Shown here one piece after another: positions 14,375 through 28,399 of a stretch of DNA of 64,000 nt. The stretch's first letter is position 1, and every line of letters begins with the position of its first letter. Location of the stretch: positions 532,297 through 596,296 of the forward strand of contig JAVYVS010000001.1 in the NCBI GenBank assembly GCA_038727515.1, given 5' to 3'. The notes under the pieces are model-generated. The model saw only the letters and a program-made list of their open reading frames with translations, did not search any database and was not told where the DNA came from. A program made the translations under genes and the position numbers. Source of the stretch: Candidatus Methanomethylicia archaeon (GTDB lineage Archaea; Thermoproteota; Methanomethylicia; Culexarchaeales; Culexarchaeaceae).

Positions 14375-15634
14375 TTGGCTTCAAGTGAAATTGGATTTAA
14401 GACTCTAATTAAAGTTAATGATGCAATTGAAATGATAAAAAGGAAACTAAAACATAGATTAGTAGAATATGAAGAAGTAAGAATTTTAGAAGCATTAAAT
14501 AGGATATGCTATGAAAATGTGACATCTCCAATGGATATACCACCATTTGATAGAGCGGCAATGGATGGATATGCAGTAAAAGCAGAAGATACAATTAATG
14601 CATCTATAAAAAACCCAATACTACTAGAGGTTACAAACTGCATAGAACCAGGAAATATTAAAGATCTAGAGGTTAAAAGTGGTTGTGCCATAGAGATATC
14701 AACAGGATCTCCAATACCAAAAAATGCAGATGCAGTAATACCATATGAAGATACAAAGAGAATTGGAAAGTATATAGAGGTATATTCTCCAGTTCATCCA
14801 GGAAAGAACATATCATTTAAAGGAGAAGATATAAAGAAGGGGGATATTATCCTAGAGAAGGGGACTATAATAAGACCATGGGATATAGCTGTATTAGCTT
14901 CAACAAATATTAGTAAAGTGAAAGTTCTCAGAAAACCGAAGATAGGAATTCTATCCATTGGATCAGAAATAATTGAACCTGGAAGTCGATGGGAAGAAGG
15001 GAAAATATTCAATAGTACAGGAGTGATGTTAAGGGCGTTTGTAATGGAAGATTTAGGGGAACCAATAGATTTAGGAATAGTAGAGGATGAAGAAGATAAA
15101 ATATGTGAAAGAATAATGAATTCAATAGACAAATGTGATATTATAATAACGACTGGAGGAACAGCTATAGGTAAAACTGATAAAACGATAAACGCTATAA
15201 AGAGTATTGGTGGAGAAGTAATATTTCATGGAGTATCCATGAGACCTGGAAAACCAACAGCTATGGCAATATTAAATGGAAAACCAATAGTAATGTTATC
15301 AGGATTTCCAGTGGCTGCATTAACTGGATATCAAAATTTCGTAAGGAAGATTATAGAACAAATATGTGAAATAAAATTTCTACCACAACCAAAAATTAAA
15401 GCTAAGATAGCTAGAAGAATCGCATCTCAATTAGGCTCTAGAGAACATTTAAGGGTAAAAGTTGTTAAGAGGGGAGATGAATATATAGCAATACCATTAA
15501 GGTTAACAGGTTCAGGATTACTCTCATCAATAACGCAAGCAACAGGAATTATTGTAATACCAGAAGAACTTGAAGGTTTAGAAGAGGGAGAGGAAGTAGA
15601 AGTAACGTTGATTAGAGGGGTGAATGAAAATTAG
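14375..15634 (+). CDS. moeA: Molybdopterin molybdo/tungstotransferase MoeA (short form)
   Basis: PPFDRAAMDGYAV, ISTGSPIP, TTGGT, MRPGKP, LSGFPVA. Confidence 0.93.
   Translation: MASSEIGFKTLIKVNDAIEMIKRKLKHRLVEYEEVRILEALNRICYENVTSPMDIPPFDRAAMDGYAVKAEDTINASIKNPILLEVTNCIEPGNIKDLEVKSGCAIEISTGSPIPKNADAVIPYEDTKRIGKYIEVYSPVHPGKNISFKGEDIKKGDIILEKGTIIRPWDIAVLASTNISKVKVLRKPKIGILSIGSEIIEPGSRWEEGKIFNSTGVMLRAFVMEDLGEPIDLGIVEDEEDKICERIMNSIDKCDIIITTGGTAIGKTDKTINAIKSIGGEVIFHGVSMRPGKPTAMAILNGKPIVMLSGFPVAALTGYQNFVRKIIEQICEIKFLPQPKIKAKIARRIASQLGSREHLRVKVVKRGDEYIAIPLRLTGSGLLSSITQATGIIVIPEELEGLEEGEEVEVTLIRGVNEN
14538..14592. repeat. 55-bp exact repeat, copy 1 (in moeA1)
   Basis: taccaccatttgatagagcggcaatggatggatatgcagtaaaagcagaagatac is identical to 15784-15838. 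Confidence 0.9.
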
Positions 15635-17609
15635 AAAGATATTCCATAAACTGTTTTCAATAGATGAAGCTCTTAAATCAATTGAAGAAAACATTGAAAT
15701 AAAACCTATAGGAATAGAGGAAGTGGATTTAAAAGATGCTGTAGGGAGAATTTTAGCTGAAGATATAATTGCAGATATAGATTTACCACCATTTGATAGA
15801 GCGGCAATGGATGGATATGCAGTAAAAGCAGAAGATACTTATAAAGCAAATGAAGAAGAACCTGTAAAACTTAGGGTTATTGGAAAGATTGAATCTGGTG
15901 AAGAACCAATATTGGAATTAGAATCGGGACAAGCAATTGAGATATCTACAGGTGCACCAATACCATTTGGAGCTAATGCAGTGGTAATGGTGGAATATAC
16001 ACATAGAGAAAATGATCATGTAATGATTTATAAACCTGTAACTATAGGGGAGAATATTGTACAATCTGGCTCAGATTTAATGATTGGAGAAACAATACTT
16101 AGATCTGGAGAAAAGCTTACTAGAAGAGAAATAGGTGTATTAGCAGCACTTGGAATATCTAGAGTTAAAGTTTATAAGAAACCAAGAGTAGCAGTAATAT
16201 CCACCGGAAATGAACTTATAAAACCTGGAGAGAGAGTTCAACCATATAAAGTGTATGATGTTAATACATATAGTATATCAAGTGCTATTATAGAGAGTGG
16301 TGGAGAACCAATAATTATTGGAGTTGTAAGAGATTGTGAAAGAGATATTAAAAGTAAGATTGTAGAAGCATTGGAGAAATCAGATATTGTATTAATTTCT
16401 GGGGGGACTTCAGCTGGAGTTGGAGATTTAGTTTATAGAGTTTTAAATGATATAGGTAAACCTGGAATAATAGTACATGGGTTAAAGATTAAACCTGGAA
16501 AACCAACGGTAATAGCAATTGCAAATGGTAAATTAATTGTAGGATTACCTGGATGGCCTGTTTCAGCATTAATGATATATGGTTTAATAATTGAACCTAT
16601 CTTATCTAAAATGATTGGTATAGGGAAGATTAACCATAAAGAGATAAACGTAAAGATTGCTAGAAGAGTTAAATGTGAAAGAGGAAGGGATAATCTAATA
16701 CCAGTGAGCATAATAATTGACGATGAAGGTAAATTCATTGGATACCCATTGATGGAACATAGTGGAGCAATAGCTACCTTAAAAAGAGCCGATGGATACT
16801 TTATAGCGAAAGAAAATAGAGAATTTATAGAAGAAGGAGAGGAGGTTAAAGTTAAACTCTTCTCAGAAATGATTGATATACCAGATGCAACAATAATTGG
16901 AAGTCACTGTCCAGCATTAGAAGAAATTACTAAAATATTAGGGAAAATGGGATATAAGATAAAAACAATATCATCAGGATCCATGGATGGTTTAATTTCA
17001 ATAATAAATGGTGAAGCAGACATAGCTGGAATACATATATTAGATGAAAAAACCATGAAATACAATATTCCAATACTTGAAGAAATGAAATTAAAAAATG
17101 CAGTATTAGTAAAGGGGTATAGTAGAATACAAGGGCTAATAATTTCAAAGGGAAATGAAAAGAATATAAAGGGTTTTGAAGATCTATTGAGGAGTGATAT
17201 AAGGTTTATAAATAGGAATAAGGGTTCTGGGACAAGAATATTCATAGATTATATGTTAAAGAAAGTAGCTAAAGAAAGAGGTTTAGAATTTGAAGAAATT
17301 AAGAAGAAGATTAAAGGATATTATATTGAAGCAAAAACGCATTCATCCATAGCTTCAGCAATAAAACTTTCAAAGGCAGATGTAGGTGTAGGAATAAAAA
17401 CTGTAGCAGTAAGATATGATCTAGGATTTATACCATTAACAATAGAAGAGTACGACTTTATAATTAAAGAGAAAAGCCTGAATAAGAATGTTATAAAAGA
17501 TTTCATAAAAGTTTTAAAAAGTGAAGACTTTAAAAGAATATTGAAATCACTTGGCATGGAACCCTCAAAGAATACTGGAGAGATAATTTGGGGTGTAAAA
17601 AGTGAATGA
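15624..17609 (+). CDS. moeA: MoeA fused to a C-terminal periplasmic-binding-protein-like (PBP) domain
   Basis: MoeA motifs (PPFDRAAMDGYAV, SGGTSAG, KPGKP, LPGWPVS), then GSHC, GSMDGL, DIAGIH, FINRNKGSGTR, EEYDF. Confidence 0.92.
   Translation: MKIRKIFHKLFSIDEALKSIEENIEIKPIGIEEVDLKDAVGRILAEDIIADIDLPPFDRAAMDGYAVKAEDTYKANEEEPVKLRVIGKIESGEEPILELESGQAIEISTGAPIPFGANAVVMVEYTHRENDHVMIYKPVTIGENIVQSGSDLMIGETILRSGEKLTRREIGVLAALGISRVKVYKKPRVAVISTGNELIKPGERVQPYKVYDVNTYSISSAIIESGGEPIIIGVVRDCERDIKSKIVEALEKSDIVLISGGTSAGVGDLVYRVLNDIGKPGIIVHGLKIKPGKPTVIAIANGKLIVGLPGWPVSALMIYGLIIEPILSKMIGIGKINHKEINVKIARRVKCERGRDNLIPVSIIIDDEGKFIGYPLMEHSGAIATLKRADGYFIAKENREFIEEGEEVKVKLFSEMIDIPDATIIGSHCPALEEITKILGKMGYKIKTISSGSMDGLISIINGEADIAGIHILDEKTMKYNIPILEEMKLKNAVLVKGYSRIQGLIISKGNEKNIKGFEDLLRSDIRFINRNKGSGTRIFIDYMLKKVAKERGLEFEEIKKKIKGYYIEAKTHSSIASAIKLSKADVGVGIKTVAVRYDLGFIPLTIEEYDFIIKEKSLNKNVIKDFIKVLKSEDFKRILKSLGMEPSKNTGEIIWGVKSE
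15784..15838. repeat. 55-bp exact repeat, copy 2 (in moeA2)
   Basis: Identical to 14538-14592. Confidence 0.9.
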
Positions 17610-18273
17610 AATAAAAATAATCGCTATAACCGATGTCCATGGAAGATTAAATCAAACTTTAAAGATAGCTGAAATATCAAAGCATAAAGATGTAGATGCA
17701 ATAATAGTTTCAGGGGATTTATCAAGATATAAGTCTATTGAAGAAGCTAAAGAAGTGCTTGAAATCCTAAGATCTAGTGGAAGAAGAATTTTCTATATAC
17801 CGGGAAATATGGATGACCCAAAAATATGTAGTGAAATACTTATAGAAAATGTAGAGTGTGTACATGAAAAGAAAATTGGATTTAAGGGTTATACCATAAT
17901 TGGAGTTGGTGGAGCTTTAATTGGGCCTTTTAATACCCCATTTGAATTAAGTGAAGAACAGTTTCTAGAAATATTTGGAAAGTTATTGAACGAAAACTTA
18001 AAGAATAATGTAATACTCGTAACACACAATCCACCATATAATACAAATGCTGATAAAACAAGTTTCAACGAACATATTGGAAGCAAAAGTATAAGATTAA
18101 TCATAGAAAAAATGGAACCAATATTAAATGTTTGTGGACATGTGCATGAAGCTAGAAGTATAGATAAAATTGATGGAACAATAATAGTTAACCCAGGACC
18201 ATTAATGTATGGTTACTATGCGGAAATAATAGTTGGAGAAAATGTTGAAGCTAAACTACTTAAACTTCCCTAG
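17602..18273 (+). CDS. Calcineurin-like metallophosphoesterase
   Basis: TDVHG, SGDL, PGNMD, THNPP, CGHVHE, VNPG. Confidence 0.9.
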   Translation: MNEIKIIAITDVHGRLNQTLKIAEISKHKDVDAIIVSGDLSRYKSIEEAKEVLEILRSSGRRIFYIPGNMDDPKICSEILIENVECVHEKKIGFKGYTIIGVGGALIGPFNTPFELSEEQFLEIFGKLLNENLKNNVILVTHNPPYNTNADKTSFNEHIGSKSIRLIIEKMEPILNVCGHVHEARSIDKIDGTIIVNPGPLMYGYYAEIIVGENVEAKLLKLP

Positions 18274-19550
18274 AAAATTTCATGGGAAAATAAATCCACA
18301 TATGTTTCTCTTCTTCTAGCTAAATAGGTTTTGCCCTCATGGAAAATAACTATGGCAGCTCTAGGTCTACTATTATAATTACTTGACATGGAAAAACCAT
18401 AAGCACCAGTATTCATTATTGCTAATATATCCCCTGGATTAACCTTATTAAGTTTAACATTAAAACCAAATACATCTGAACTTTCACATATAGGACCAGC
18501 AACATTATATTCATATAGTTCTTCATTGGAAGATAAATTGAGTATTGGGTGAGTTGCTCCATAAAGTGCAGGTCTAATTAAATCGTTCATTCCAGCATCC
18601 ACTAAAACCCATTTAAATCCATAATCCTCTTTAACATAGTTAACCCTAGTTAAAAGTATACCGGAATTACCAACAATAAATCTTCCAGGTTCAAATATTA
18701 TAAGAGGATTATCAATAAAGAATTCATGTGGTGGATCAATTAATTTACGAATTACTTCACAATATTCATTTAGTGGAAATATTCTTTCATCTTTTGAATA
18801 TGGTATTCCAAATCCTCCACCAAGATCAATGATTTCCAATTTAATACCAAACATTTCATATAATCTACTACAGAAATTTAGAATTTCATTTACAGCTATT
18901 CTATAAGGTTCAATATCGAAGATTTGTGATCCTAGATGTATATGAATACCGGAAACATGAATATTATCTAGTTTTAAGGCAGTTTCATAAGCTTTAAAGG
19001 CATTGTAAATACTTAAACCGAATTTATGTATTCTAGCTCCAGTACCTATATGAGCATGAGTTTTAACTGGAATATCAAAATTCACTCTAACACCAATAGA
19101 AGTTTTAACATTCAATTCACTGGAAAACTTATTTATCCAATATAGTTCATCGATGTTCTCAATGTTTATCAATAAAATGCGTGAAGAAACAGCATCAAAG
19201 ATTTCATTTGGAGATTTAGATACACCATCAAAAACGATTTTATTTGATGGTACATTGACGAGTTTAGCTGCATAAAGTTCACCGCTAGAAACAACTTCAG
19301 CTCCTGCACCCAATTCATTCAAAAGTTTAAGTAATGCTAGACATGTATTAGCCTTATAAGCATAGCATATCAAATTCCTCTCCCAAATCTTATCTAAAGA
19401 ATTCTTTAAAGTAATGTAATTGTGTTTAACCATGTCAAGATCAATGAGGTATAATGGAGTTCCATACTCTTCAACTAAAGCTTTAAAATTTAAACCTCTA
19501 TCCTTTAAATTTTCAATATATCTTTGAAAAACAAAAGGATCATTATACAT
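18270..19550 (-). CDS. lysA: Diaminopimelate decarboxylase
   Basis: YGTPLY, YAYKAN (PLP Lys), THAHIGTG..HKFG, HIHLGSQI, DLGGGFG, EPGRFIV, GPICESSD, GAYGFSMSSNYNSRPR. Confidence 0.88.
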   Translation of the reverse strand: MYNDPFVFQRYIENLKDRGLNFKALVEEYGTPLYLIDLDMVKHNYITLKNSLDKIWERNLICYAYKANTCLALLKLLNELGAGAEVVSSGELYAAKLVNVPSNKIVFDGVSKSPNEIFDAVSSRILLINIENIDELYWINKFSSELNVKTSIGVRVNFDIPVKTHAHIGTGARIHKFGLSIYNAFKAYETALKLDNIHVSGIHIHLGSQIFDIEPYRIAVNEILNFCSRLYEMFGIKLEIIDLGGGFGIPYSKDERIFPLNEYCEVIRKLIDPPHEFFIDNPLIIFEPGRFIVGNSGILLTRVNYVKEDYGFKWVLVDAGMNDLIRPALYGATHPILNLSSNEELYEYNVAGPICESSDVFGFNVKLNKVNPGDILAIMNTGAYGFSMSSNYNSRPRAAIVIFHEGKTYLARRRETYVDLFSHEIF

Positions 19551-19557
19551 TGATGAT

Positions 19558-20397
19558 TCATCTCAACAATGTTGAAGCTAGATATATCATAACCCGTAAA
19601 ACTTTAAAACATTTTAAGTAATCATCTGAAACATATTCAACAGTTGTTGCATCAATCCTCTTAACATCAGGTATCATTGTAGCTAAATCAGCCATACCAG
19701 AATTCATAAAGGTTAAATTCAATTTTATGGGAGGTTTAAATTTAAATGGTGAAAACTTTGATAAGTTTTCCAGAGCACTTTTAGCAGCAGATTTTATTAA
19801 TTCACGAGCTTCACTTGGATGAATACATAAAGCAGAATATCTACCAAAAGCTTCCTTAACCTTAACAGTCATAACATTTCCAAGAAGACTTTTAGCTTCC
19901 TCCACAACAGTTGAATCTCCAGTAACTAAAACTACTGGGACATTATAGTATCCAGCTATACCAGCATTAATACCAACTTCACCAACACTTAAACCATTTA
20001 TCGAAATATTGCGAACTACAGAACCTGAAATTGTATGATCAAGGATTGCATTAATACTACCAAATTTAGCATGATAACCAATGAAGAATGCAGCATCAAA
20101 AGTTTCATTTATACCAGCCATCATTGATAAAACCTTTGGAGAACCAGTTATCAATTTAGCCTTTGGATGTAAATCCTCAATAATTATGTTTCTCATAGAA
20201 CCATGAGAATCATTAACTATAATTTCATCAGCACCACCAATAATTGCACCTTCAATAGCAGCATTAACTTCAGAAGTCATAAGTTTACATGCACGTTCAT
20301 ACTCTCTACTACCAGGATTTGTTTGATCGCTATGAACTACACCACAAATACCTTCCATATCTGCAGAAATGAAAACCTTAAATCCCAAAAAATTCAC
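19558..20397 (-). CDS. dppA: D-aminopeptidase, peptidase family M55 (DppA)
   Basis: FISADMEG, NDSHG, IGYHA, LDHT, GEVGIN, VTGD. Confidence 0.92.
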   Translation of the reverse strand: MNFLGFKVFISADMEGICGVVHSDQTNPGSREYERACKLMTSEVNAAIEGAIIGGADEIIVNDSHGSMRNIIIEDLHPKAKLITGSPKVLSMMAGINETFDAAFFIGYHAKFGSINAILDHTISGSVVRNISINGLSVGEVGINAGIAGYYNVPVVLVTGDSTVVEEAKSLLGNVMTVKVKEAFGRYSALCIHPSEARELIKSAAKSALENLSKFSPFKFKPPIKLNLTFMNSGMADLATMIPDVKRIDATTVEYVSDDYLKCFKVLRVMIYLASTLLR

Positions 20398-20458: not shown

Positions 20459-21613
20459 TCACCATTCAAATAATTCTACGTTAGCTCTTGGAACTATAAC
20501 TCTCCTACCATCTTGTAATTCTATTTCAACAATTCTCACTGGAGATTCTGTTTCAACAGGTTGAAGCTCCACTGGGAGATTTACAACTTTTGCCAATTGT
20601 CCAAAGTATGGAGCTCTAATAACTCTAACCTTAGTTCCAGGCTTCATTCCTCCAACATATATTTCAGATTCCAATGGAAGAGATAATGGATCTACATCAC
20701 TACGTGGAATAACTATTTCAGGTCTTATAACACCAGCTCTAATTTGTGTTGCACCATCAAAGCAAGCTAATTTACCTTCATTAGCTTTAAACATATTGAA
20801 AGTTCTAGAAGCCATAGGTATTTCACCAAATCCCTCTGTTATAATTACCGTCATAGAAATATCTTCCCTACCAGTAATTGCAACTCCTATCTCATAACCT
20901 AAGAAATCCTTAATATCCTTAAAATCAATTCCACCAACGACAATTCCAGCAGTACCAACTTCCATAGCTTTCTTAAGAACTTCAGCTGAAGCATATGAAC
21001 CTCCAACAACTAGTTTACCCTTCCACTTAGGTGAAACCATATCAACAGTCAATTTATCCTTTGGAGAGTCAACAGCAACAAACACTTCTCCATGTCTTTC
21101 ACCGCCAATACCGAAAATACCCTCAATAAATGTGGATGCACATTCTATAACTACACCTTCCTTTGGAATGATTTCAGTGACAATACCAGGTATGTATGCA
21201 TCAAGTTCAACTGGTATCGGAGGTTCTCTAACAATTATCTGACCAGTAACTTCTGAGATATGTTCAATATAACCATCTGTTGGAGATTTAACTTCAGATT
21301 TCAATAATCCAAAGAAGGCTCTATAACTTGCAATAATGTCACCTTTACTAACTTTATCTCCAATTTTCTTCTTTACATATAATGGTAATTCCTCAGGTTC
21401 AATACCTAAAATGGCAGCTGCACTAACAATATGTATGTCTCCAGGAAGACTTGTTCTAGCTACAACATCACTATAATTAACTTTATCACCCTTATTCACA
21501 AGAACTTCGCCTGGAAGAGGCAGTCTCCTAACTTTTCTAAATCTAAATAACTCAGAAATTCTAAGACCAGGGGTGTATGCATGTGCAGATTGAGAAACTT
21601 TCTCAGAGGACAT
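20459..21613 (-). CDS. Uncharacterised protein of GlmL-associated clusters (sandwich-barrel hybrid motifs and C-terminal KOW-like domain)
   Basis: AHAYTPGL N-terminus, GEVLVNKGDKV and KKIGDKVSKGDIIA barrel-hybrid motifs, GIFGIGGE, ITEGFG, TQIRAGVIRPE, GTKVRVIRAPYFG, VPRANVE. GGGGTGA SD; 13 bp downstream of the glmL-like gene. Confidence 0.75.
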   Translation of the reverse strand: MSSEKVSQSAHAYTPGLRISELFRFRKVRRLPLPGEVLVNKGDKVNYSDVVARTSLPGDIHIVSAAAILGIEPEELPLYVKKKIGDKVSKGDIIASYRAFFGLLKSEVKSPTDGYIEHISEVTGQIIVREPPIPVELDAYIPGIVTEIIPKEGVVIECASTFIEGIFGIGGERHGEVFVAVDSPKDKLTVDMVSPKWKGKLVVGGSYASAEVLKKAMEVGTAGIVVGGIDFKDIKDFLGYEIGVAITGREDISMTVIITEGFGEIPMASRTFNMFKANEGKLACFDGATQIRAGVIRPEIVIPRSDVDPLSLPLESEIYVGGMKPGTKVRVIRAPYFGQLAKVVNLPVELQPVETESPVRIVEIELQDGRRVIVPRANVELFEW

Positions 21614-21626
21614 ATTATTTCACCCC

Positions 21627-23486
21627 CTAAATTTTCTCTTTTTCTAAAATACTCTCTGGATAAGCATTTAAAGCTTTAAACCATTTAATCAATGCATTCC
21701 TACGTTGATTGAAATCTTCTGGGAGTTTTAGAGGTCTCCCTCTAGCATCAATAACTATTCCAGCAGCTCCACCCCAAACAGTAGCCTCCCTCTTCTTGCC
21801 TGGACCCATACCCACATCAAAATCTCCAGTGGGTTCTATAACTACATTAGCAGTTTCATCATCCTTTAGTGGTATTCTATCTATATCACCATAATTGACC
21901 ACTTTTTCCACAGTTCTTCCATCAGGCATAGTTGCAGTAACTTTAACAGCTGGACCGGTGGATTTTGAGTGTCCATCAAGAGCTATAACCGTACCAAGTT
22001 TAACTATACAATCTCTTTCAAAGATTTCCATAGCAGCCTTTGGATGAACAGTTGAGAGAACTCCTAGATGTGGCATCATGAATATACTATCACACATAAG
22101 TCTAGTAACACCTTTAGGTTGGAAGGCATCTATCAATATTAATGCAGCTTGTTGTCTACGTGGAGTATGGGATAGAAGACCTCCAGTACCACCAATTAAT
22201 TGTATATTCATCATATTAATGTATGTTTCAGTCTCCATAGATTGTTCAAATATATCTGCAATTGTCCTCTTCCTTTGAATTCCTCTTAAACCTCTAGCTA
22301 GAAGTTTATGATGTTCAAATCCAAGTCTAATAGCTTCACGTGCTACAGCATGTTCAACCATTAAATCATCTAATGTTTGAGGTAATGTAGTTGGTCTAAT
22401 CATCTTATTAGCCAACCTATTTCTAACCTCTCTTTCATCAATTTCAAATGGAATCCACCTCATAATATTGGTTACACCAGCTTCCTTCAAAACATTCGTA
22501 ATACTGTAACTCATACCAAGATTTGCACTAACAGTCCTAACAAATTTACCATCATATACGGAGTAAACATTAGTTGTAGCACCACCTAAACCCACACCCA
22601 AAACATTTATCTTCCACATTCTTGCAATAGTCCTAAACATCATACCTTCACCAGCAGGAGTTGGCATAACTGGAACCATAACCCATTCAGTCAATTTATG
22701 ATAACCAGGGGCATGAGCCATAACATGCTCCATAAACAATCTATGAATAGCATCTCTAGCAGGTTCAACAACTTCAACTTCTAAAACAGGTCTTAAATTC
22801 TCTACAATAGTTAGATCAAAAGTTTCCCCTAAAGTCTTTTTAATATGCTCTCTAGCATCCTTATTACCAGCATAAACAATTGGAAGCTTATATCCCAATC
22901 CAAATCTAGGTTTAGGTTCAGCAGCCTTTATAAGCTCAGCCATTTCAACAACATGTTTAATGGTTCCACCATCAGTTCCACCAGCTAATAGAATCATATC
23001 AGGCCTCAAGAAACGCATACGCTCAATCTTCTTATGTGGAGGTCTACCATCATCAATAGCCATAACATCCATAACTATTGCTCCAGCTCCAAGAGCAGCT
23101 CTCTCAGCACTTTCCGCAGTCATAGTTTTAACTACGCCTGCAACCATCATTTGCAATCCACCGCCAGCACTACTTGTTGAAACATACAAATCTACACCAA
23201 CATTGTTTCCCTGATATGGTATTATGAGCCCAGAGCCATCAGGTTTCAGTAGTTTGTGACCAGTTAATTCTTCAACTTCAGTTATAGCATTGCGTAAACC
23301 CATGGTAACATCTTCAAAAGGTTTTTCCACAGTGGTTGGAGCTTCACCAGCAACTATAAATCTCCAAACACCATCAACCTTTTTAAAGAGCCTAGCCTTT
23401 GTAGTCGTACTACCCACATCAGTTGCTAAAGCAACTTGCATACGTTCAACATCAAATTGAATAACTTTTTCACTCATCACACACAC
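21627..23486 (-). CDS. Glutamate mutase L (GlmL/MutL)-like ASKHA-fold ATPase
   Basis: TDVGSTTTK, EAPTTVE, SSAGGGL, TAESAERAALGAGA, PDMILLAGGTDGG, YAGN, MPTP, GGATTNV, RTVSANLG, IDARGRP. Confidence 0.85.
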   Translation of the reverse strand: MCVMSEKVIQFDVERMQVALATDVGSTTTKARLFKKVDGVWRFIVAGEAPTTVEKPFEDVTMGLRNAITEVEELTGHKLLKPDGSGLIIPYQGNNVGVDLYVSTSSAGGGLQMMVAGVVKTMTAESAERAALGAGAIVMDVMAIDDGRPPHKKIERMRFLRPDMILLAGGTDGGTIKHVVEMAELIKAAEPKPRFGLGYKLPIVYAGNKDAREHIKKTLGETFDLTIVENLRPVLEVEVVEPARDAIHRLFMEHVMAHAPGYHKLTEWVMVPVMPTPAGEGMMFRTIARMWKINVLGVGLGGATTNVYSVYDGKFVRTVSANLGMSYSITNVLKEAGVTNIMRWIPFEIDEREVRNRLANKMIRPTTLPQTLDDLMVEHAVAREAIRLGFEHHKLLARGLRGIQRKRTIADIFEQSMETETYINMMNIQLIGGTGGLLSHTPRRQQAALILIDAFQPKGVTRLMCDSIFMMPHLGVLSTVHPKAAMEIFERDCIVKLGTVIALDGHSKSTGPAVKVTATMPDGRTVEKVVNYGDIDRIPLKDDETANVVIEPTGDFDVGMGPGKKREATVWGGAAGIVIDARGRPLKLPEDFNQRRNALIKWFKALNAYPESILEKEKI

Positions 23487-23558
23487 CTAATTAACTTAAA
23501 CAACATTATAGTTATCAGCAATTTAAACTTTACCATTTAATCAACGGAATTTAATAAA

Positions 23559-24005
23559 TTATTTGCTTTTAACTTCAGAAGTTGATTCTACAGTTTCACT
23601 CTTAGTACTTGAGGTGCTGGAAAAACTTAATCTTATATATGTATTTTGAGCACACTCATTAATATTAGATCTCAACAATAGTATTTTAATAGTCCAAACT
23701 ACAGCTATACCAGTACTAAGTATTATCAGATTAAACTCTAATAGTGGTAATATGACGATTAATGCAAATAATAATGCAGAAACACTTAATCTATAACCAA
23801 ATCTTAAAAAGTCAACTTCATCTATAACATATATTTTCGCTTCACCAAAAATATCGCTATATATTAAATCGCAACCCCTCTCCTTAGAGATTTTTGTGTT
23901 AAGCCCTCTACGCCTCATTTCTTCAGCAAAACTCTTAAGAAATTCACTTCTCATACCGCCAATTTCTGGAAAAAGTCTTTCATTAATAGATATGCTAACC
24001 GACAT
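23559..24005 (-). CDS. Hypothetical membrane protein (two TM helices)
   Basis: 148-aa ORF with a central hydrophobic hairpin and a Ser/Thr-rich tail; co-oriented with its neighbours. Confidence 0.6.
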   Translation of the reverse strand: MSVSISINERLFPEIGGMRSEFLKSFAEEMRRRGLNTKISKERGCDLIYSDIFGEAKIYVIDEVDFLRFGYRLSVSALLFALIVILPLLEFNLIILSTGIAVVWTIKILLLRSNINECAQNTYIRLSFSSTSSTKSETVESTSEVKSK

Positions 24006-24058
24006 TTAAATCCAAATAGTTTAAAGAATAAAGGATATAATAACGTTTGTGGTTTAAA

Positions 24059-25873
24059 TTACGTTCTAGAAACTTCAAAATTAATATTTAAACCAGAATC
24101 CAAAGCATTCTTTAAATATTTACCAACATCACTGGATAAATTAAAAACAAGTCTAGCTCTCTTATCACATCTATAAGACCCAAAATACTTTCCATCAATA
24201 TATAAATTCACGTTTAACTTAGCATATTCACGATCAAAATAGAATATTAAACTACGTTTAGTCTCCCTATAAGAATAATCAATCTTAGAAGATTCAGTAA
24301 ATTCATCCCTCGCTTGAATCTTAATCCTAACATTAAACTTTCTTTCAAGTTCACTTATAATATTACCATTTCTACCAATTATATGTGGAATAACATTCTT
24401 CTTAACTTTAACAATAACAAAATTATCAGATAAAACCTCCAATTCAGCATTAGAATCAAATCTTCTAATGAATTTCATTAAATCTTTAAAATCCCTTTCA
24501 GATCTTTTAACCTCAAGATCACGTTTAACTGGGAATATGACCGTCTCCTCACCAAAAGTATAGATTTCATATTCAACTTCATTAGTCTCAAAATCCCTAA
24601 CTTCAACAACAGGTCTAGCTAAATCTTCATCCATCATACCATGAGGAACTTTAACCACCAAATCTAATACGTAAACCTTCTTAATTAAACCATCTTTAAT
24701 AAATATGACAGTATCAATAACTTGAGGGATGACGCCAAGATCAATTCTACCAATAAATCTATGTATGGCATCTACGGGAGAAGAAGAATGTACAACACCA
24801 ATCATACCGACACCAGCAAGTCTCATATCAACAAAAACCTGGAAATCTTCAGTTTTCCTCAATTCATCAAAAACAGTGTAATCAGGTCGAACAAGCAATA
24901 GTATTTCAGCAGTTTTATAAAACTCTCCTTCCAAAGGAGCGTATTGCGTAATTTCATCTCTAACCTGAAGATCCCTTGGAGCCTCCATAGTCTTCACTAT
25001 AGCATTCTTACTAGTACGGTAAAATTCAGCTAGAGCAGAGGCAAATGTGGATTTACCAGCACCTGGAGGGCCACAGATAAGTATACCCTCAGCTCTTTCA
25101 GCAAGCCTCCTCTTCAATTTATCTGATAAAGCATAATCATCAATAGAAACTTTAACTATAGGTCTAACGGCAGTAATCTCTAAACCATCGGAAAATGGTG
25201 GTCTAGCTATAGCAATCCTATATTCACCTAGTTGAATAACCATGGCACCACGTCTAACAATCTCTATGAAGGCATTACCATCAGAGTGGCAACGCTTTAA
25301 AATATCTCTAATTATATATTCAAGTTCAGCTCTACTACAAGGTTCTTCTCTAATTTTAACAAGCTCCCATCTACCAGGTTTACCACGTTTAGCATAAGGT
25401 GGAACACCCTCCTTCAAATGGATACTCATAGTATCACTAGTAAAAAAGTTTTCAAGTTTAATATGAGCATAACTTTCCTCAGCACCAATAAATCTAACTT
25501 TAATCCCCTCAGCTTCAGAAACAAGAGATTGAACATAATCCATAGTATATAGGGTAGCATCATAATCTTTAGCTACATTTCTAATTAGAGCATCAATCCT
25601 ACCCATCTCAGCCATCTTAATATCATCAACAGAAGCAATTTCACCAACAAACTTTATAATAATATTTCTATCAGTACAAAGCTTCCTCAACCTAATTAGT
25701 TCATCTAAACCCTTAAAACCACGTTCACTACCACTAGAAGCTTGTGCTTGCAATTCATCTAAAACAACCCTTGGAACTATAATTTCCAAATCCCTTAAAT
25801 CTTCATCTAAAATAATTTTCGAAAGTTTACCTTCCACTAGAATACTAGTATCCGGAACTATCCTATTTACCAT
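24059..25873 (-). CDS. PINA ATPase (PIN domain + VirB11-like ATPase + KH domain)
   Basis: IVPDTSI (PIN), GPPGAGKST, LLVRPDYTVFDELR, DMRLAGVGMIGVVH, KH motif IIGRNG. Start moved to the ATG at 25873 after an AGGTG SD. Confidence 0.9.
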   Translation of the reverse strand: MVNRIVPDTSILVEGKLSKIILDEDLRDLEIIVPRVVLDELQAQASSGSERGFKGLDELIRLRKLCTDRNIIIKFVGEIASVDDIKMAEMGRIDALIRNVAKDYDATLYTMDYVQSLVSEAEGIKVRFIGAEESYAHIKLENFFTSDTMSIHLKEGVPPYAKRGKPGRWELVKIREEPCSRAELEYIIRDILKRCHSDGNAFIEIVRRGAMVIQLGEYRIAIARPPFSDGLEITAVRPIVKVSIDDYALSDKLKRRLAERAEGILICGPPGAGKSTFASALAEFYRTSKNAIVKTMEAPRDLQVRDEITQYAPLEGEFYKTAEILLLVRPDYTVFDELRKTEDFQVFVDMRLAGVGMIGVVHSSSPVDAIHRFIGRIDLGVIPQVIDTVIFIKDGLIKKVYVLDLVVKVPHGMMDEDLARPVVEVRDFETNEVEYEIYTFGEETVIFPVKRDLEVKRSERDFKDLMKFIRRFDSNAELEVLSDNFVIVKVKKNVIPHIIGRNGNIISELERKFNVRIKIQARDEFTESSKIDYSYRETKRSLIFYFDREYAKLNVNLYIDGKYFGSYRCDKRARLVFNLSSDVGKYLKNALDSGLNINFEVSRT

Positions 25874-25922
25874 AACATTCAAGCACCTTAAAGAAGAAGA
25901 TGATACTATCAAACTAATAAAT

Positions 25923-26615
25923 TTATACCCTTGAAATACTAATCATCCTTATAACATCAGCAGTATCTTCAGCTTTATCAGCAGCAGCCTCAATATTTTC
26001 AACAGCTTCTTTAATCATAAGCCATCTACTAATCTTAGGATAAGTTTCACCCCATTCTAATATCAACATTATCAATTCAACTCTACGCTCATCTATTTCC
26101 TCCTCTAACCTCTCAACTTCTTCAGCTACATCAATAGCTTTAATTGGATTTTCAATAAGAGTATTAAAGGCATCCCTAAGCTTCAATGTTATATTATACG
26201 ATAAATCAGCAAGCAGTTTTAAACCATCAACAATCCCTTTAGGAAGCAATACACCTTTAGCCATGGAAAGCTTTCTACCAGCAGATTTAGCATTTGAAGC
26301 AATGTCATCAGCAGTTAAAATTAAATTCATAATTTCCTCTTTATCAGAAGGATGAAATGGACCTTTAGAAAGTTCATTGAGAATCTTCTCTTTAACATCA
26401 TCAGCATCCCTCTCCCTTTGAAAAACAATCTTAAAGACATTGTCAACTTTATTAAAATCATTATCACAAAATGCATAAATAAGATCTCTTAAAGCTGAAA
26501 CAGTTGATAAAATACATTCTATATGAACTCTAACAATATTTAAAATTTCCAATTCACGCTTCCTACCAAACCATAGAGCAGGATATGTTGGTTTAAAGTC
26601 CAAATAATCCACCAC
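25923..26615 (-). CDS. DUF47/PhoU-like phosphate transport regulator
   Basis: ERDADDVK, LILTADDIA, ERLEEEID, ENIEAAADKAED; adjacent to a Pit transporter gene. Confidence 0.85.
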   Translation of the reverse strand: MVDYLDFKPTYPALWFGRKRELEILNIVRVHIECILSTVSALRDLIYAFCDNDFNKVDNVFKIVFQRERDADDVKEKILNELSKGPFHPSDKEEIMNLILTADDIASNAKSAGRKLSMAKGVLLPKGIVDGLKLLADLSYNITLKLRDAFNTLIENPIKAIDVAEEVERLEEEIDERRVELIMLILEWGETYPKISRWLMIKEAVENIEAAADKAEDTADVIRMISISRV

Positions 26616-26708
26616 TTAAATAAAATACAACTAAATCATAATATAAGGATTTTCATTAAAAACGAAAAATCTTTAAACAATACCTATCGAAATAAATGAG
26701 AAATATCA

Positions 26709-27761
26709 GTGATTAATGAGGCGGGTGTATTGATTGATACAGTAATGATACTATTGACCATTGGATTACTATTATCATTCCTCCTCTCATTAAGTCTCGG
26801 TGCAAATGATGCTGCAACACCAACAGATTGCGCTGTAGGAGCAGGAGTAATATCAATTAAAAGGGCTCTATTCTTATTTGCAATATTCACATTTATAGGA
26901 GCAGTGACTCAAGGATTCATGGTAATTAAAACTATAGGTAAAGGTATAGTTAATGAAATAGATATTGTAGGTGCAATATCAATATCAATTGCAACATCTA
27001 TATGGGTATTATACTGCTCATATAAGGGTTTAGATGTTTCAGTAACACATAGCAGTATTGGAAGTGTAACTGGATACGGCTTAATAGCCTATGGATTTTC
27101 AGGATTAAATTATGATGTTATCAAAAATGTAGTTATAAGTTGGGTAACATCACCAATATGCGCAATATCACTATCATATACTCTATATAAGTTAACCATG
27201 AAAATCCTAATGAATAAACCTTGGACATATAGATTGGAGAAAGTAATATCATACGGATTAATATTCTCATTATGCTTCTCAGCATACTCCTTTGGAGCAA
27301 ATGATGTTGGAAATGCTACAGGAGCATATGTAACAGTAGCTACGAAAATTGGTAAAATTCCAGATTATAATACAATGTTATTCTTGTCAATTTTAGGAGC
27401 TACAGGTATAGCTATTGGAGGATTATTCTGGGGGAGAAGAGTTATAGAGACTGTGGCATTTAAAATAACTAGAATTGATGCAATTATGGGTATGATAGCT
27501 GAATTAAGTAATGCATTGGTGGTATATTTATTCACAACAATACCATACATGATATTTGGATTTGGAATGCCAATATCCACATCAATAGCAAGCAATTCAT
27601 CAATAATAGGAGTAGGATTAGCAAAAGATTACAAAGCAGTAAATTACAGGACTATTTTAAAATTAGTAATAGGGTGGTTATCAACACTCCCAATGACAAT
27701 GCTAATAACTGCCATAGTATACATAACTTTAAAAACAATTATTATGGTGCCTCAAATATGA
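26709..27761 (+). CDS. Inorganic phosphate transporter (PiT family)
   Basis: Two GAND motifs (GANDAA, GANDVGN), VSVTHS, MPISTS. Confidence 0.92.
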   Translation: MINEAGVLIDTVMILLTIGLLLSFLLSLSLGANDAATPTDCAVGAGVISIKRALFLFAIFTFIGAVTQGFMVIKTIGKGIVNEIDIVGAISISIATSIWVLYCSYKGLDVSVTHSSIGSVTGYGLIAYGFSGLNYDVIKNVVISWVTSPICAISLSYTLYKLTMKILMNKPWTYRLEKVISYGLIFSLCFSAYSFGANDVGNATGAYVTVATKIGKIPDYNTMLFLSILGATGIAIGGLFWGRRVIETVAFKITRIDAIMGMIAELSNALVVYLFTTIPYMIFGFGMPISTSIASNSSIIGVGLAKDYKAVNYRTILKLVIGWLSTLPMTMLITAIVYITLKTIIMVPQI

Positions 27762-28399
27762 AGAGAATAGTAATTCTTGGACCCCCTGGTTCTGGTAAGG
27801 GGACGCAAGCAAAATTAATCTCTGAAAAATATGGAGTACCACATATATCAACTGGAGATGTATTAAGGGAAAACATATCTAAAAAAACAAAAATTGGGGA
27901 GATCGTTAGGGAATATATAGAGAGAGGAGAATTAGTTCCAGATGAAATAATAATTAAAATAACGATAGATAAGCTAATTGAAGCAGTAAACGTTAGTGGA
28001 GGATACATATTGGATGGATATCCAAGAACTATACCTCAAGCAGAAGCATTAGAGAAATCAATTATAAAACCAGAAATAGTAATAGATATAAAACTTAGTG
28101 AAGATGAATGCGTTAGAAGATTAACAAATAGAAGATACTGCCCCAATTGTGGAGAAGTATATAATATGTTACTTAAACCACCAAGAGAAAACGAGAAATG
28201 CGATAAATGTAATGTGAAACTTTTACAGAGGGAAGATGATAGAGAAGATGTTATAAGAAGGAGATTTAAAGAATATTACAATAAAACGAAGCCAGTAATG
28301 GATTATTATAGAAGTATTGGAAAATTAGTTGAAGTTGATGGTGGTGGAAGTATAGAAGAAATTCATAAAAGAATATTGGAGATATTAAAGTTTACTTAA
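27758..28399 (+). CDS. adk: Adenylate kinase, bacterial type with Zn-binding LID
   Basis: GPPGSGKGTQA, HISTGD, GELVPD, LDGYPRT, CPNC..CDKC LID, QREDD. The true start ATG at 27758 overlaps the pit stop (ATGA). Confidence 0.93.
   Translation: MKRIVILGPPGSGKGTQAKLISEKYGVPHISTGDVLRENISKKTKIGEIVREYIERGELVPDEIIIKITIDKLIEAVNVSGGYILDGYPRTIPQAEALEKSIIKPEIVIDIKLSEDECVRRLTNRRYCPNCGEVYNMLLKPPRENEKCDKCNVKLLQREDDREDVIRRRFKEYYNKTKPVMDYYRSIGKLVEVDGGGSIEEIHKRILEILKFT

Follow-up and report, generated by a model that had tools for sequence, protein, structure and literature searches.

What does an ATPase of the GlmL/MutL type do in a genome in which no adenosylcobalamin (AdoCbl)-dependent mutase can be found for it to serve? 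The question is raised by two adjacent genes in a stretch of 64,000 nucleotides (nt) from contig JAVYVS010000001.1 of a Candidatus Methanomethylicia archaeon of the order Culexarchaeales (henceforth the window; positions are window coordinates unless a contig or locus label precedes them). A first-pass annotation had described the two as an orphan ATPase with a dedicated partner, together making up a two-protein machine, and a check of the open reading frames (ORFs) bore out both minus-strand frames:

21627..23486, minus strand: long MutL/GlmL-family ASKHA protein (P0001, here MutL), 619 amino acids (aa) counted from a GTG at 23486
20459..21613, minus strand: partner protein (P0002), 384 aa

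The MutL-partner pairing is conserved and often takes the form of a fusion. The pair is independent of AdoCbl mutases; in phyletic pattern and in repeated clustering it goes with a cassette of four membrane-protein genes headed by DUF6754 and with two further protein families, referred to below as c9 and c2. Our tentative reading, to which we give slightly less than an even chance, is that the pair is the single-copy, soluble, nucleotide-dependent core of a membrane-associated system, with import or translocation as the most likely process.

The pairing was assessed in 85 loci, namely the best 80 of 576 confirmed metagenome loci plus eight genome loci (from a single-protein scan of genome contigs, which yields close relatives only), minus the duplicates L011, L013 and L024. 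Seventy three of them were informative, having at least 300 nt of sequence upstream of the partner gene. In 54 of the 73 the next gene upstream, on the partner's strand, was that of MutL, and in three others a single ORF stood between the two. The two proteins are also found on one chain: among 74 partner-containing proteins longer than 672 aa, 73 carry the Pfam MutL family (PF13941) as well, which makes them natural fusions of MutL and partner, ~1000 aa long. They come from Planctomycetota, Neomarinimicrobiota, Cloacimonetes and unnamed sources and go by the name of 'glutamate mutase L' at NCBI; some of them give weak matches to Hydantoinase_A. The adjacency in most informative loci and the 73 fusions uphold the view of the partner as dedicated to the ATPase, and the neighbourhood analysis that had been suggested as a check found the pairing kept across archaea and bacteria.

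The partner family is large, with at least 7994 clusters of homologues at 90% identity and 2650 representatives at 50% identity (E <= 0.001). Members were found in Culexarchaeia, Bathyarchaeia, Nitrososphaeria, WOR-3, Planctomycetota, Marinimicrobia, Zixibacteria, Chloroflexota and other groups, and a search of a plasmid collection gave no match. The protein of this archaeon is 52–59% identical to those of bacterial or other archaeal loci, and many homologues start exactly MAHAYTPGLKV. Some bacteria have tandem paralogous MutL-partner pairs (L037, L051, L069, L073), in which the first partner is about 450 aa long, has an extra N-terminal hybrid domain and is without the AHAYTPGL start. More distant fusions of MutL to a hybrid domain (P0328, P0331 and relatives, largely named Cloacimonetes) have an N-terminal HTH_3 domain (64.7 bits) or a zinc ribbon, pointing to a branch of the family that would bind DNA or regulate.

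The ATPase itself is readily placed. P0001 matches the PF13941 profile at 404.2 bits (cut-off 27) over residues 20–493 and profile positions 2–450 of 450, in agreement with the original call of a 619-aa protein of GlmL/MutL type and ASKHA fold, and beyond this core (~20–493) the chain runs on for about 125 aa as a conserved C-terminal extension. We aligned 41 long-form MutL sequences from archaeal and bacterial contigs (mean column identity 61%); to those outside its own class P0001 is 51–66% identical, and against bacterial or other archaeal loci the MutL figure is 57–66%. In this alignment the extension holds, among other invariant residues, D580-x-R582-G-R-P585. The motif IDARGRP, with which the protein had been thought to end, is present at 578–585, yet 34 residues come after it. 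Both nucleotide-binding motifs read from the sequence, DVGSTTTK (23–30) and VGLGGATTNV (298–307), are there, and the phosphate-1 residues D23, G25, S26, T27 and T28 are invariant across the 41 sequences.

The phosphate-2 loop is another matter, as P0001 departs from the motif D-x-G-G-x-T-x-D with its two acidic residues, both Asp being replaced. P0001 and a further 28 ORFs have the form GVGLGGATTN[VI], and 22 ORFs of the same long family, bacterial members included, have GVDIGGATTD[VI]. In a FastTree phylogeny of the 41 sequences the G/N form makes up one monophyletic clade of 22 sequences; the altered loop noticed in the first-pass annotation is real, a clade-wide loss of two acidic residues. 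In Hsp70 and actin the phosphate-2 aspartates are important for catalysis. G/N and D/D forms alike occur with the partner, with c2 and with the cassettes.

With GlmL and Or-4 the protein has in common the PF13941 core and the phosphate-1 motif. It scores below the NCBIfam cut-offs for GlmL (NF040745, 209.5 bits against 475) and Or-4 (NF040744, 207.8 against 600), and below that of the glmL_fam subfamily (TIGR01319, 143 against 204), for which a fused relative (P0149) also falls short at 166 bits. It differs from both, moreover, in the extra C-terminal region, in belonging to a family that comes with a 384-aa partner and, within the window's clade, in the lack of the phosphate-2 aspartates. A profile search of the PDB gave the long MutL no significant sequence-related solved structure.

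The genomic evidence likewise separates the pair from mutases. In profile searches of the archaeon's own genome (1.586 Mb in 12 contigs, 93.6% complete) we found no GlmE (PF06368), methylmalonyl-CoA mutase (PF01642), lysine aminomutase alpha subunit (PF09043), diol dehydratase (PF02286) or EutB (PF06751); the negatives for PF09043 and PF02286 are weak because their controls were silent, matching in no control genome, and the control for PF06368 matched only below cut-off, in Haloferax. Five other carriers, from five families and 92–99% complete, have none of PF06368, PF09043 and PF01642, and the recurrent neighbour clusters that were annotated include no mutase, corrinoid or radical-enzyme family. 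The absence of glmE/glmS or another B12 mutase that had been remarked for the window is confirmed, and none was found in the whole genome either; nor is the ATPase tied to an AdoCbl mutase in any of the six carrier genomes examined, so that a role as glutamate-mutase reactivase is not supported. GlmL differs on the same count, no glmS/glmE, aminomutase or methylmalonyl-CoA mutase having been found in the carriers examined.

The partner has no Pfam or NCBIfam family over threshold. Its sub-threshold Pfam matches are to RnfC_N (23 bits, cut-off 25.6), KOW (17.9 bits) and Biotin_lipoyl (16.3 bits, cut-off 22.1), and a sequence-profile search of the PDB gave nothing significant (RraA, E 0.069). 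An AlphaFold2 model from a 38-sequence alignment (predicted local distance difference test, pLDDT, 84.8; predicted template modelling score 0.74) was compared by VIA-align with 48,161 chains, and from the model, its fold matches and the alignment the protein can be divided as follows:

residues 13–17: YTPGL peptide, invariant columns
residues ~19–135: barrel-sandwich hybrid domain (model and fold matches)
residues ~139–305: Gly-rich swivelling beta/beta/alpha domain (model and fold matches)
residues ~322–384: KOW/SH3-like barrel (model and fold matches)

Among the 50 matches listed, residues 58–132 superpose on the N-terminal hybrid domain of RnfC (Z 8.0, root-mean-square deviation 2.2 Å, 64 residues) and on NqrA (Z 7.8). 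The stretch ~139–305 matches RraA (Z 7.9 over 124 residues), Enzyme I (Z 7.6 over 110), rifampin phosphotransferase (Z 7.4) and the small subunit of aconitase X (Z 6.9), and 322–384 matches the KOW/SH3-like barrels of NusG and Spt5 (Z about 8). Z values of this size are common and therefore name folds, not relatives. A Foldseek search with the same model returned one match at E <= 0.001, a multi-domain NusG of Thermotoga with TM-score 0.11. The two hybrid motifs that had been read from the sequence are thereby reduced to one clear barrel-sandwich hybrid domain, a second not being confirmed in the model; the Gly-rich alpha/beta core and the C-terminal KOW-like barrel are both seen in it.

Conservation in the 38-sequence alignment concentrates on Gly, Arg and Glu, which account for most invariant residues and lie in loops of the central domain. 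The invariant Y13-T-P-G-L17 falls in a low-confidence N-terminal stretch (residues 1–15 have pLDDT below 50). No His or Cys is invariant, and no His is conserved even at 90%. Biotinyl and lipoyl carriers are modified at a lysine at the tip of a hairpin, in an M-K-M or D-K-A context; in the partner the corresponding K105 is not invariant and neither context is present. Three kinds of known protein invite comparison. RnfC and NqrA resemble the partner in the hybrid domain onto which it superposes, in weak RnfC_N/NQRA_N profile matches and in being soluble and accompanied by small polytopic membrane proteins, but the partner has no flavin/NADH, SLBB or Fe-S domain and gave no match to Complex1_51K, SLBB or Fer4. 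The phosphoenolpyruvate-utilising enzymes, together with RraA and aconitase X, have the swivelling fold in common with it; they differ in that the partner is without an invariant phospho-accepting His. The third, the dehydratase reactivases, is taken up below.

What travels with the pair is largely a set of membrane proteins. Clustering of 892 ORFs from the loci gave these recurrent families:

DUF6754 (PF20539): first gene of a four-gene cassette; 18 loci
c5: ~215 aa, about four hydrophobic segments; 18 loci
c6: ~288 aa, a hydrophobic segment at either end; 17 loci
c3: ~219 aa, polytopic; 19 loci
c2: small acidic protein of ~130 aa, with the N-terminal 90 residues conserved, a Lys/Glu-rich tail and, in many, a C-terminal GWRRFLPF; 24 loci
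c9: ~316 aa, matching DUF483 (E 1.4e-10), with invariant C198, C199 and C248; 9 loci
c21: membrane protein of ~140 aa with a weak TIGR04086/DUF3792 match; 5 loci

The order within the cassette is DUF6754-c5-c6-c3. At least two of its four families occur in 20 of the 85 loci, and MutL is also present in 18 of those 20; of the 33 loci that extend over 12 kb or more, 25 have MutL, and a cassette was seen in 11 of these, against one of the eight that lack MutL. Its position varies from locus to locus, being upstream of the pair, downstream of it or divergent. One locus (L025) runs DUF6754-c5-c6-c3-c21-c2-MutL-partner on a single strand, while three tandem cassettes follow the pair in L059 and two in L085.

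Apart from DUF6754 and c9, the components fall into no Pfam or NCBIfam family in profile scans, PDB profile searches gave nothing significant for DUF6754, c6, c9 or c2, and no P-loop ATPase or ATP-binding cassette (ABC) signature was seen in any component. Rnf-Nqr membrane subunits were matched by none of 41 c5/c3 members at E up to 1. TMD0_ABC was matched by five of these 41 (best E 6e-4), which we judged to be hydrophobic chance matches; homology between c5 and c3 was rejected (hhalign probability 0.7%), as was that between DUF6754 and c6 (27%). In long DUF6754 proteins a first transmembrane segment is followed by a Lys/Arg-rich stretch, the conserved domain and a last transmembrane segment. 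Given this stretch after the first segment, the positive-inside rule predicts that the conserved domain is cytoplasmic and could be reached by the pair, and the central domain of c6 probably faces outward since its charge pattern is opposite to that of DUF6754. The long bacterial forms of DUF6754 have a signal peptide and then an FN3-like region, ~130 aa, before the first transmembrane segment, and other long forms have PQQ-type beta-propellers or are named FN3 proteins (P0351-P0361); long proteins with ectodomains were noted at L059, L075, L085 and L088.

The same company is kept at the level of genomes. We sampled 401 genomes evenly across the phylum, this archaeon's among them, and found the partner in 12 and DUF6754 in the same 12 (up to six copies scored in each) plus a 59-aa fragment at a contig end in a thirteenth. 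MutL was present at 395 bits or more in ten of the 12 and truncated at a contig end in the eleventh (77.5 bits); it was not found in the twelfth, a genome 57% complete. The other 42 MutL matches were below 28 bits and in other ORFs, mostly of ~525 or ~715 aa, and covered mostly profile positions 1 to 50–60, with a few short internal stretches. Full-length c9 (at least 325 bits) was found in 11 of the 12 partner genomes and elsewhere only as the Cys-motif region, at 35 bits or less; DUF6754 was absent from all 14 well-known control genomes, and clusters with it are reported from Bacillota, Chloroflexota and Planctomycetota. In one carrier (G360) c21, a cassette, MutL, the partner, a second cassette and c9 lie within 13 kb, and in another (G126) the partner, MutL, c2, DUF6754, c5 and c6 succeed each other up to the contig end. 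The phylogenetic profiling that the first-pass annotation had called for thus returned no link to B12 mutases in six carriers and a pattern following DUF6754 in 401 genomes. Of its two-protein machine, the pair is real; it is not self-contained, having its phyletic pattern and, in other lineages, its operon in common with the DUF6754 cassettes, c9, c2 and c21.

The archaeon's own genome has eight DUF6754 genes, four loci being seen as complete four-gene cassettes, and homologues of c5, c6 and c3 adjoin other DUF6754 genes as well. The genes c21, c9 and c2 stand together at C2:96.6-98.4k. Adjoining the cassettes are genes for S49, M28 and M20 peptidases, an amidohydrolase, DUF885 and a carboxylase set. 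One cassette (C2:283981-288968, L106 5012-9999) lies directly downstream, on the same strand, of genes for a biotin carrier and an OadA-like carboxyltransferase (PYC_OADA plus HMGL-like). The DUF6754 gene at C1:633999-634730 (L095) has an in-frame TAA and was called as pieces of 101 and 149 aa; this locus is possibly a decaying cassette.

How would such a system work? MutL and the partner would form a tightly associated cytoplasmic complex and would not be a B12-mutase reactivase; the other parts of the system would be the DUF6754-c5-c6-c3 cassette, c9, c2 and c21. Binding of nucleotide in the ASKHA subunit, with hydrolysis in the clade that keeps its aspartates, would shift the swivelling domain of the partner, on the model of the Hsp70-like alpha subunit of the diol/glycerol dehydratase reactivase. 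The shift would then pass to the cytoplasmic domain of DUF6754 and there drive or gate a process carried out by the cassette, whose other subunits would be the polytopic c5 and c3 and a c6 that exposes a domain outside the cell, as long DUF6754 forms would with their FN3 or beta-propeller ectodomains. A touching of DUF6754 by the pair, the sense in which the two are coupled and a role in transport are all inferred. Import or translocation appears the most likely process because one soluble module beside many diverged cassettes resembles a shared energiser with interchangeable units.

ECF-type (energy-coupling factor) transporters have such a shared energising module, and the likeness to them is one of genome organisation only, with a single copy of the soluble module and many diverged membrane units, scattered or adjacent. 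They differ in that no P-loop ATPase or ABC signature is found here and in that the unit consists of four distinct membrane proteins. The more ambitious form of this idea would make the ASKHA switch the engine of a new class of membrane machine, powering or gating many DUF6754 cassettes, and we consider it improbable; the same holds for the transporter part of that idea, a family of primary transporters or translocases unrelated to the ABC, P-type, V/F-type and ECF families.

Several observations weigh against a membrane-system core altogether. None of the components has a known function, their relatives being only DUF families in Pfam and none in NCBIfam or, by sequence, in the PDB, and no transporter is known to run on an ASKHA protein. 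The loss of both phosphate-2 aspartates in the window's clade (GVGLGGATTN against GVDIGGATTD) tells against a plain ATP-hydrolysing motor in this archaeon. A sensor or a surface-assembly machine would likewise accommodate the FN3 and propeller ectodomains. The cassettes of the archaeon's own genome are all outside the window, far from the pair, and the 12 carriers amount to three lineages only, namely its own order (ten genomes) and two other families (G126 and G360). The pairing has exceptions too: 16 of the 73 informative loci have a partner without adjacent MutL, ten of these being devoid of MutL throughout although their sequence extends upstream for 1900 nt or more, and eight of the 33 loci of at least 12 kb are without any MutL. 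Such partner-only loci share another context (a PorV-like protein, then AccA and Era) and keep the N-terminal motif. Finally, the 74th of the long partner-containing proteins (P0284), a candidate fusion of partner to DUF6754, was set aside: its two parts are separated by a signal peptide and an FN3-like region, the mark of a read-through from one gene into its neighbour.

Foremost among the alternatives, already raised in the first-pass annotation and in our estimate unlikely, is a soluble ATP-dependent enzyme, i.e. a kinase, a ligase or an opener of lactams or amides akin to hydantoinase, oxoprolinase or acetone carboxylase, in which the swivelling and hybrid domains would act as carrier or lid and the cassettes would import substrates such as peptides or modified amino acids. 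The very high conservation of both proteins, with many invariant Gly-rich loops and charged residues, speaks for an enzyme, as do the Hydantoinase_A matches of the fused forms, weak as they are, and the presence of the swivelling fold in the phosphotransfer domains of Enzyme I and rifampin phosphotransferase. Genes for M20, M24, S58, creatininase, M55, AstE and M28 proteins, too, are repeatedly seen near the pair or near a cassette. Of the 85 loci, 23 have a recurrent cluster of peptidases or amidohydrolases (M20 in four and three loci, M24 in three, S58 in four, creatininase in five, AstE-like in two); with 10–20 genes per locus, the recurrence may be chance. Against an enzyme, the partner offers no invariant His or Cys as a phospho- or acyl-carrier and its hybrid domain no invariant hairpin lysine, the G/N clade is without the phosphate-2 aspartates, and it is hard to explain why a single enzyme should be needed for eight diverged cassettes.

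A regulator or sensor, whose ASKHA subunit would bind a metabolite or nucleotide in the manner of a ROK repressor and so control the activity or assembly of the cassettes, seems to us more doubtful still. It would accommodate the clade-wide loss of catalytic aspartates, which fits a binding switch, as well as the HTH_3 domain (or zinc ribbon) of the distant fusions and the ectodomains of DUF6754, FN3 and beta-propeller domains being common in sensors. The window's own family, however, has no DNA-binding domain, the KOW-like barrel is a generic fold, and both the extreme conservation and the single copy beside many cassettes would be unusual for a regulator.

Very unlikely, in our judgement, is a reactivase or chaperone for some other cobalamin or radical enzyme, for instance the corrinoid protein of an MttB system. 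The combination of ASKHA and swivelling domains is the make-up of the alpha subunit of the dehydratase reactivase: PMC7674605 describes this subunit as an Hsp70-like ATPase linked to a swivelling domain, with release of a bound subunit when ATP is hydrolysed. On that description our system may have the pairing of an ASKHA ATPase with a swivelling domain in common with DdrA/GdrA, here on two chains and in the 73 fusions on one. The genome, furthermore, does encode one corrinoid protein, its sole protein with a B12-binding domain, between two MttB-family genes (C1:139952-143293, L002). No sequence similarity to DdrA/GdrA was detected, however, the reactivase is not among the 50 fold matches listed (though this does not exclude it), no dehydratase was found in the genome (with its control silent), and the context is one of membrane proteins. 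To this must be added the six of six carriers without an AdoCbl mutase, the annotated neighbour clusters without any such enzyme, the NCBIfam scores far under the GlmL and Or-4 cut-offs and a phyletic pattern that follows DUF6754. Least probable of all is an actin-like filament that positions or organises the membrane cassettes, which the fold class of PF13941 and the association with membrane proteins might suggest but for a Pfam scan without similarity to MreB, FtsA, ParM or PilM and the stoichiometric fusion to a 384-aa partner, atypical of filament formers.

Around the pair, the window holds the following features:

23520..23526, minus strand: TTTAAAT, TATA-box-like, ~40 nt upstream of the ATG at 23477 (sequence read)
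21614..21626, minus strand: 13-nt spacer GGGGTGAAATAAT, with the Shine-Dalgarno sequence of the partner gene (sequence read)
19558-20397, minus strand: dppA, M55 D-aminopeptidase (361.8 bits), downstream of the partner
18270-19550, minus strand: lysA (TIGR01048, 457.6 bits), downstream of dppA
23559..24005, minus strand: small membrane protein of 148 aa without a family (P0005), upstream of MutL
24059-25912, minus strand: PIN, T2SSE/AAA-type ATPase and KH protein of 617 aa, upstream

The likelier start of MutL is the ATG at 23477, three codons inside the GTG and preceded by AGGTG, and the TTTAAAT box is a possible promoter of the pair, to judge from its letters. The junction of the two genes reads TAG-GGGGTGAAATAAT-ATG, with GGGGTGA as a strong Shine-Dalgarno sequence, just as the 13-nt spacing had been described. 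Contigs from a metatranscriptome library (X18), of a strain about 98–99% identical, cover 20514-23471 without a break in overlapping pieces, and one of them (1951 nt, 21522-23471) spans the interior of the partner, the junction and the start of MutL. RNA libraries may contain DNA, and a contig over two genes is no proof of one transcript, so these contigs are weak support for expression and co-transcription of the pair. No contig of this library covers 23625-24134, 18270-18524, 19290-19544 or 24645-24899, and depth is lower over dppA and lysA; such contigs neither rank genes nor mark the ends of transcripts, and the gaps are uninformative on operon borders. The same stretch is present in DNA runs of 11 studies, nearly all labelled as hot-spring metagenomes, and among named organisms its contig is closest to Candidatus Culexarchaeum and Culexmicrobium.

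Proximity to dppA and lysA had been taken as a hint of a role in peptide or D-amino-acid processing, a hint that is not supported. lysA lies downstream of the pair only in the archaeon's own order (cluster 7, ten loci, all Culexarchaeia-like), and dppA follows the pair in four of the ten own-order loci and is replaced or absent in the rest. The link is one of local synteny, with no conserved functional coupling; between the partner's stop codon and the start of dppA lie a T-rich tract and another TTTAAAT box. On the other side, P0005 fills the slot directly upstream of MutL where c2 sits in other lineages, and its family (cluster c15) is found only in the archaeon's own order. In Culexarchaeia-like loci the PIN-ATPase-KH gene keeps its place as the second one upstream of MutL (cluster 14, six loci).

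Elsewhere in the window, two successive MoeA genes occupy 14375-17609 on the plus strand, the second fused to a domain of ~190 aa with the periplasmic-binding-protein fold. A DUF47/PhoU-like protein and a PHO4 phosphate transporter form a divergent pair at 25923-27761. An adenylate kinase ORF (27674-28399) overlaps the 3' end of the PHO4 transporter gene by 88 nt as called, and its start is therefore probably further downstream.

The ATPase belongs to a known Pfam family, and the system as a whole fits no described kind. Full-text searches of open papers (for DUF6754, PF20539, PF13941, TIGR01319, 'glutamate mutase L' and DUF3792) turned up nothing on it, and a term search of the main text of the Culexarchaeia genome paper gave no occurrence of 'mutase', 'MutL' or 'GlmL'. 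It brings together at least seven protein families without a solved relative or a known function, and a partner identity of ~55% between domains of life is a constraint typical of core machinery. The label 'glutamate mutase L' would mislead metabolic reconstructions towards a B12-dependent glutamate fermentation that these genomes cannot perform. If an ASKHA protein does run a transporter or translocase here, this would be a new coupling of nucleotide energy to a membrane process, and were the ASKHA switch indeed the engine of many cassettes, the family of such machines would be widespread in uncultivated anaerobic archaea and bacteria, its parts now going under 'glutamate mutase L' and hypothetical proteins. 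In any case, the pair and its companions provide a defined, testable gene set for a large share of microbial dark matter.

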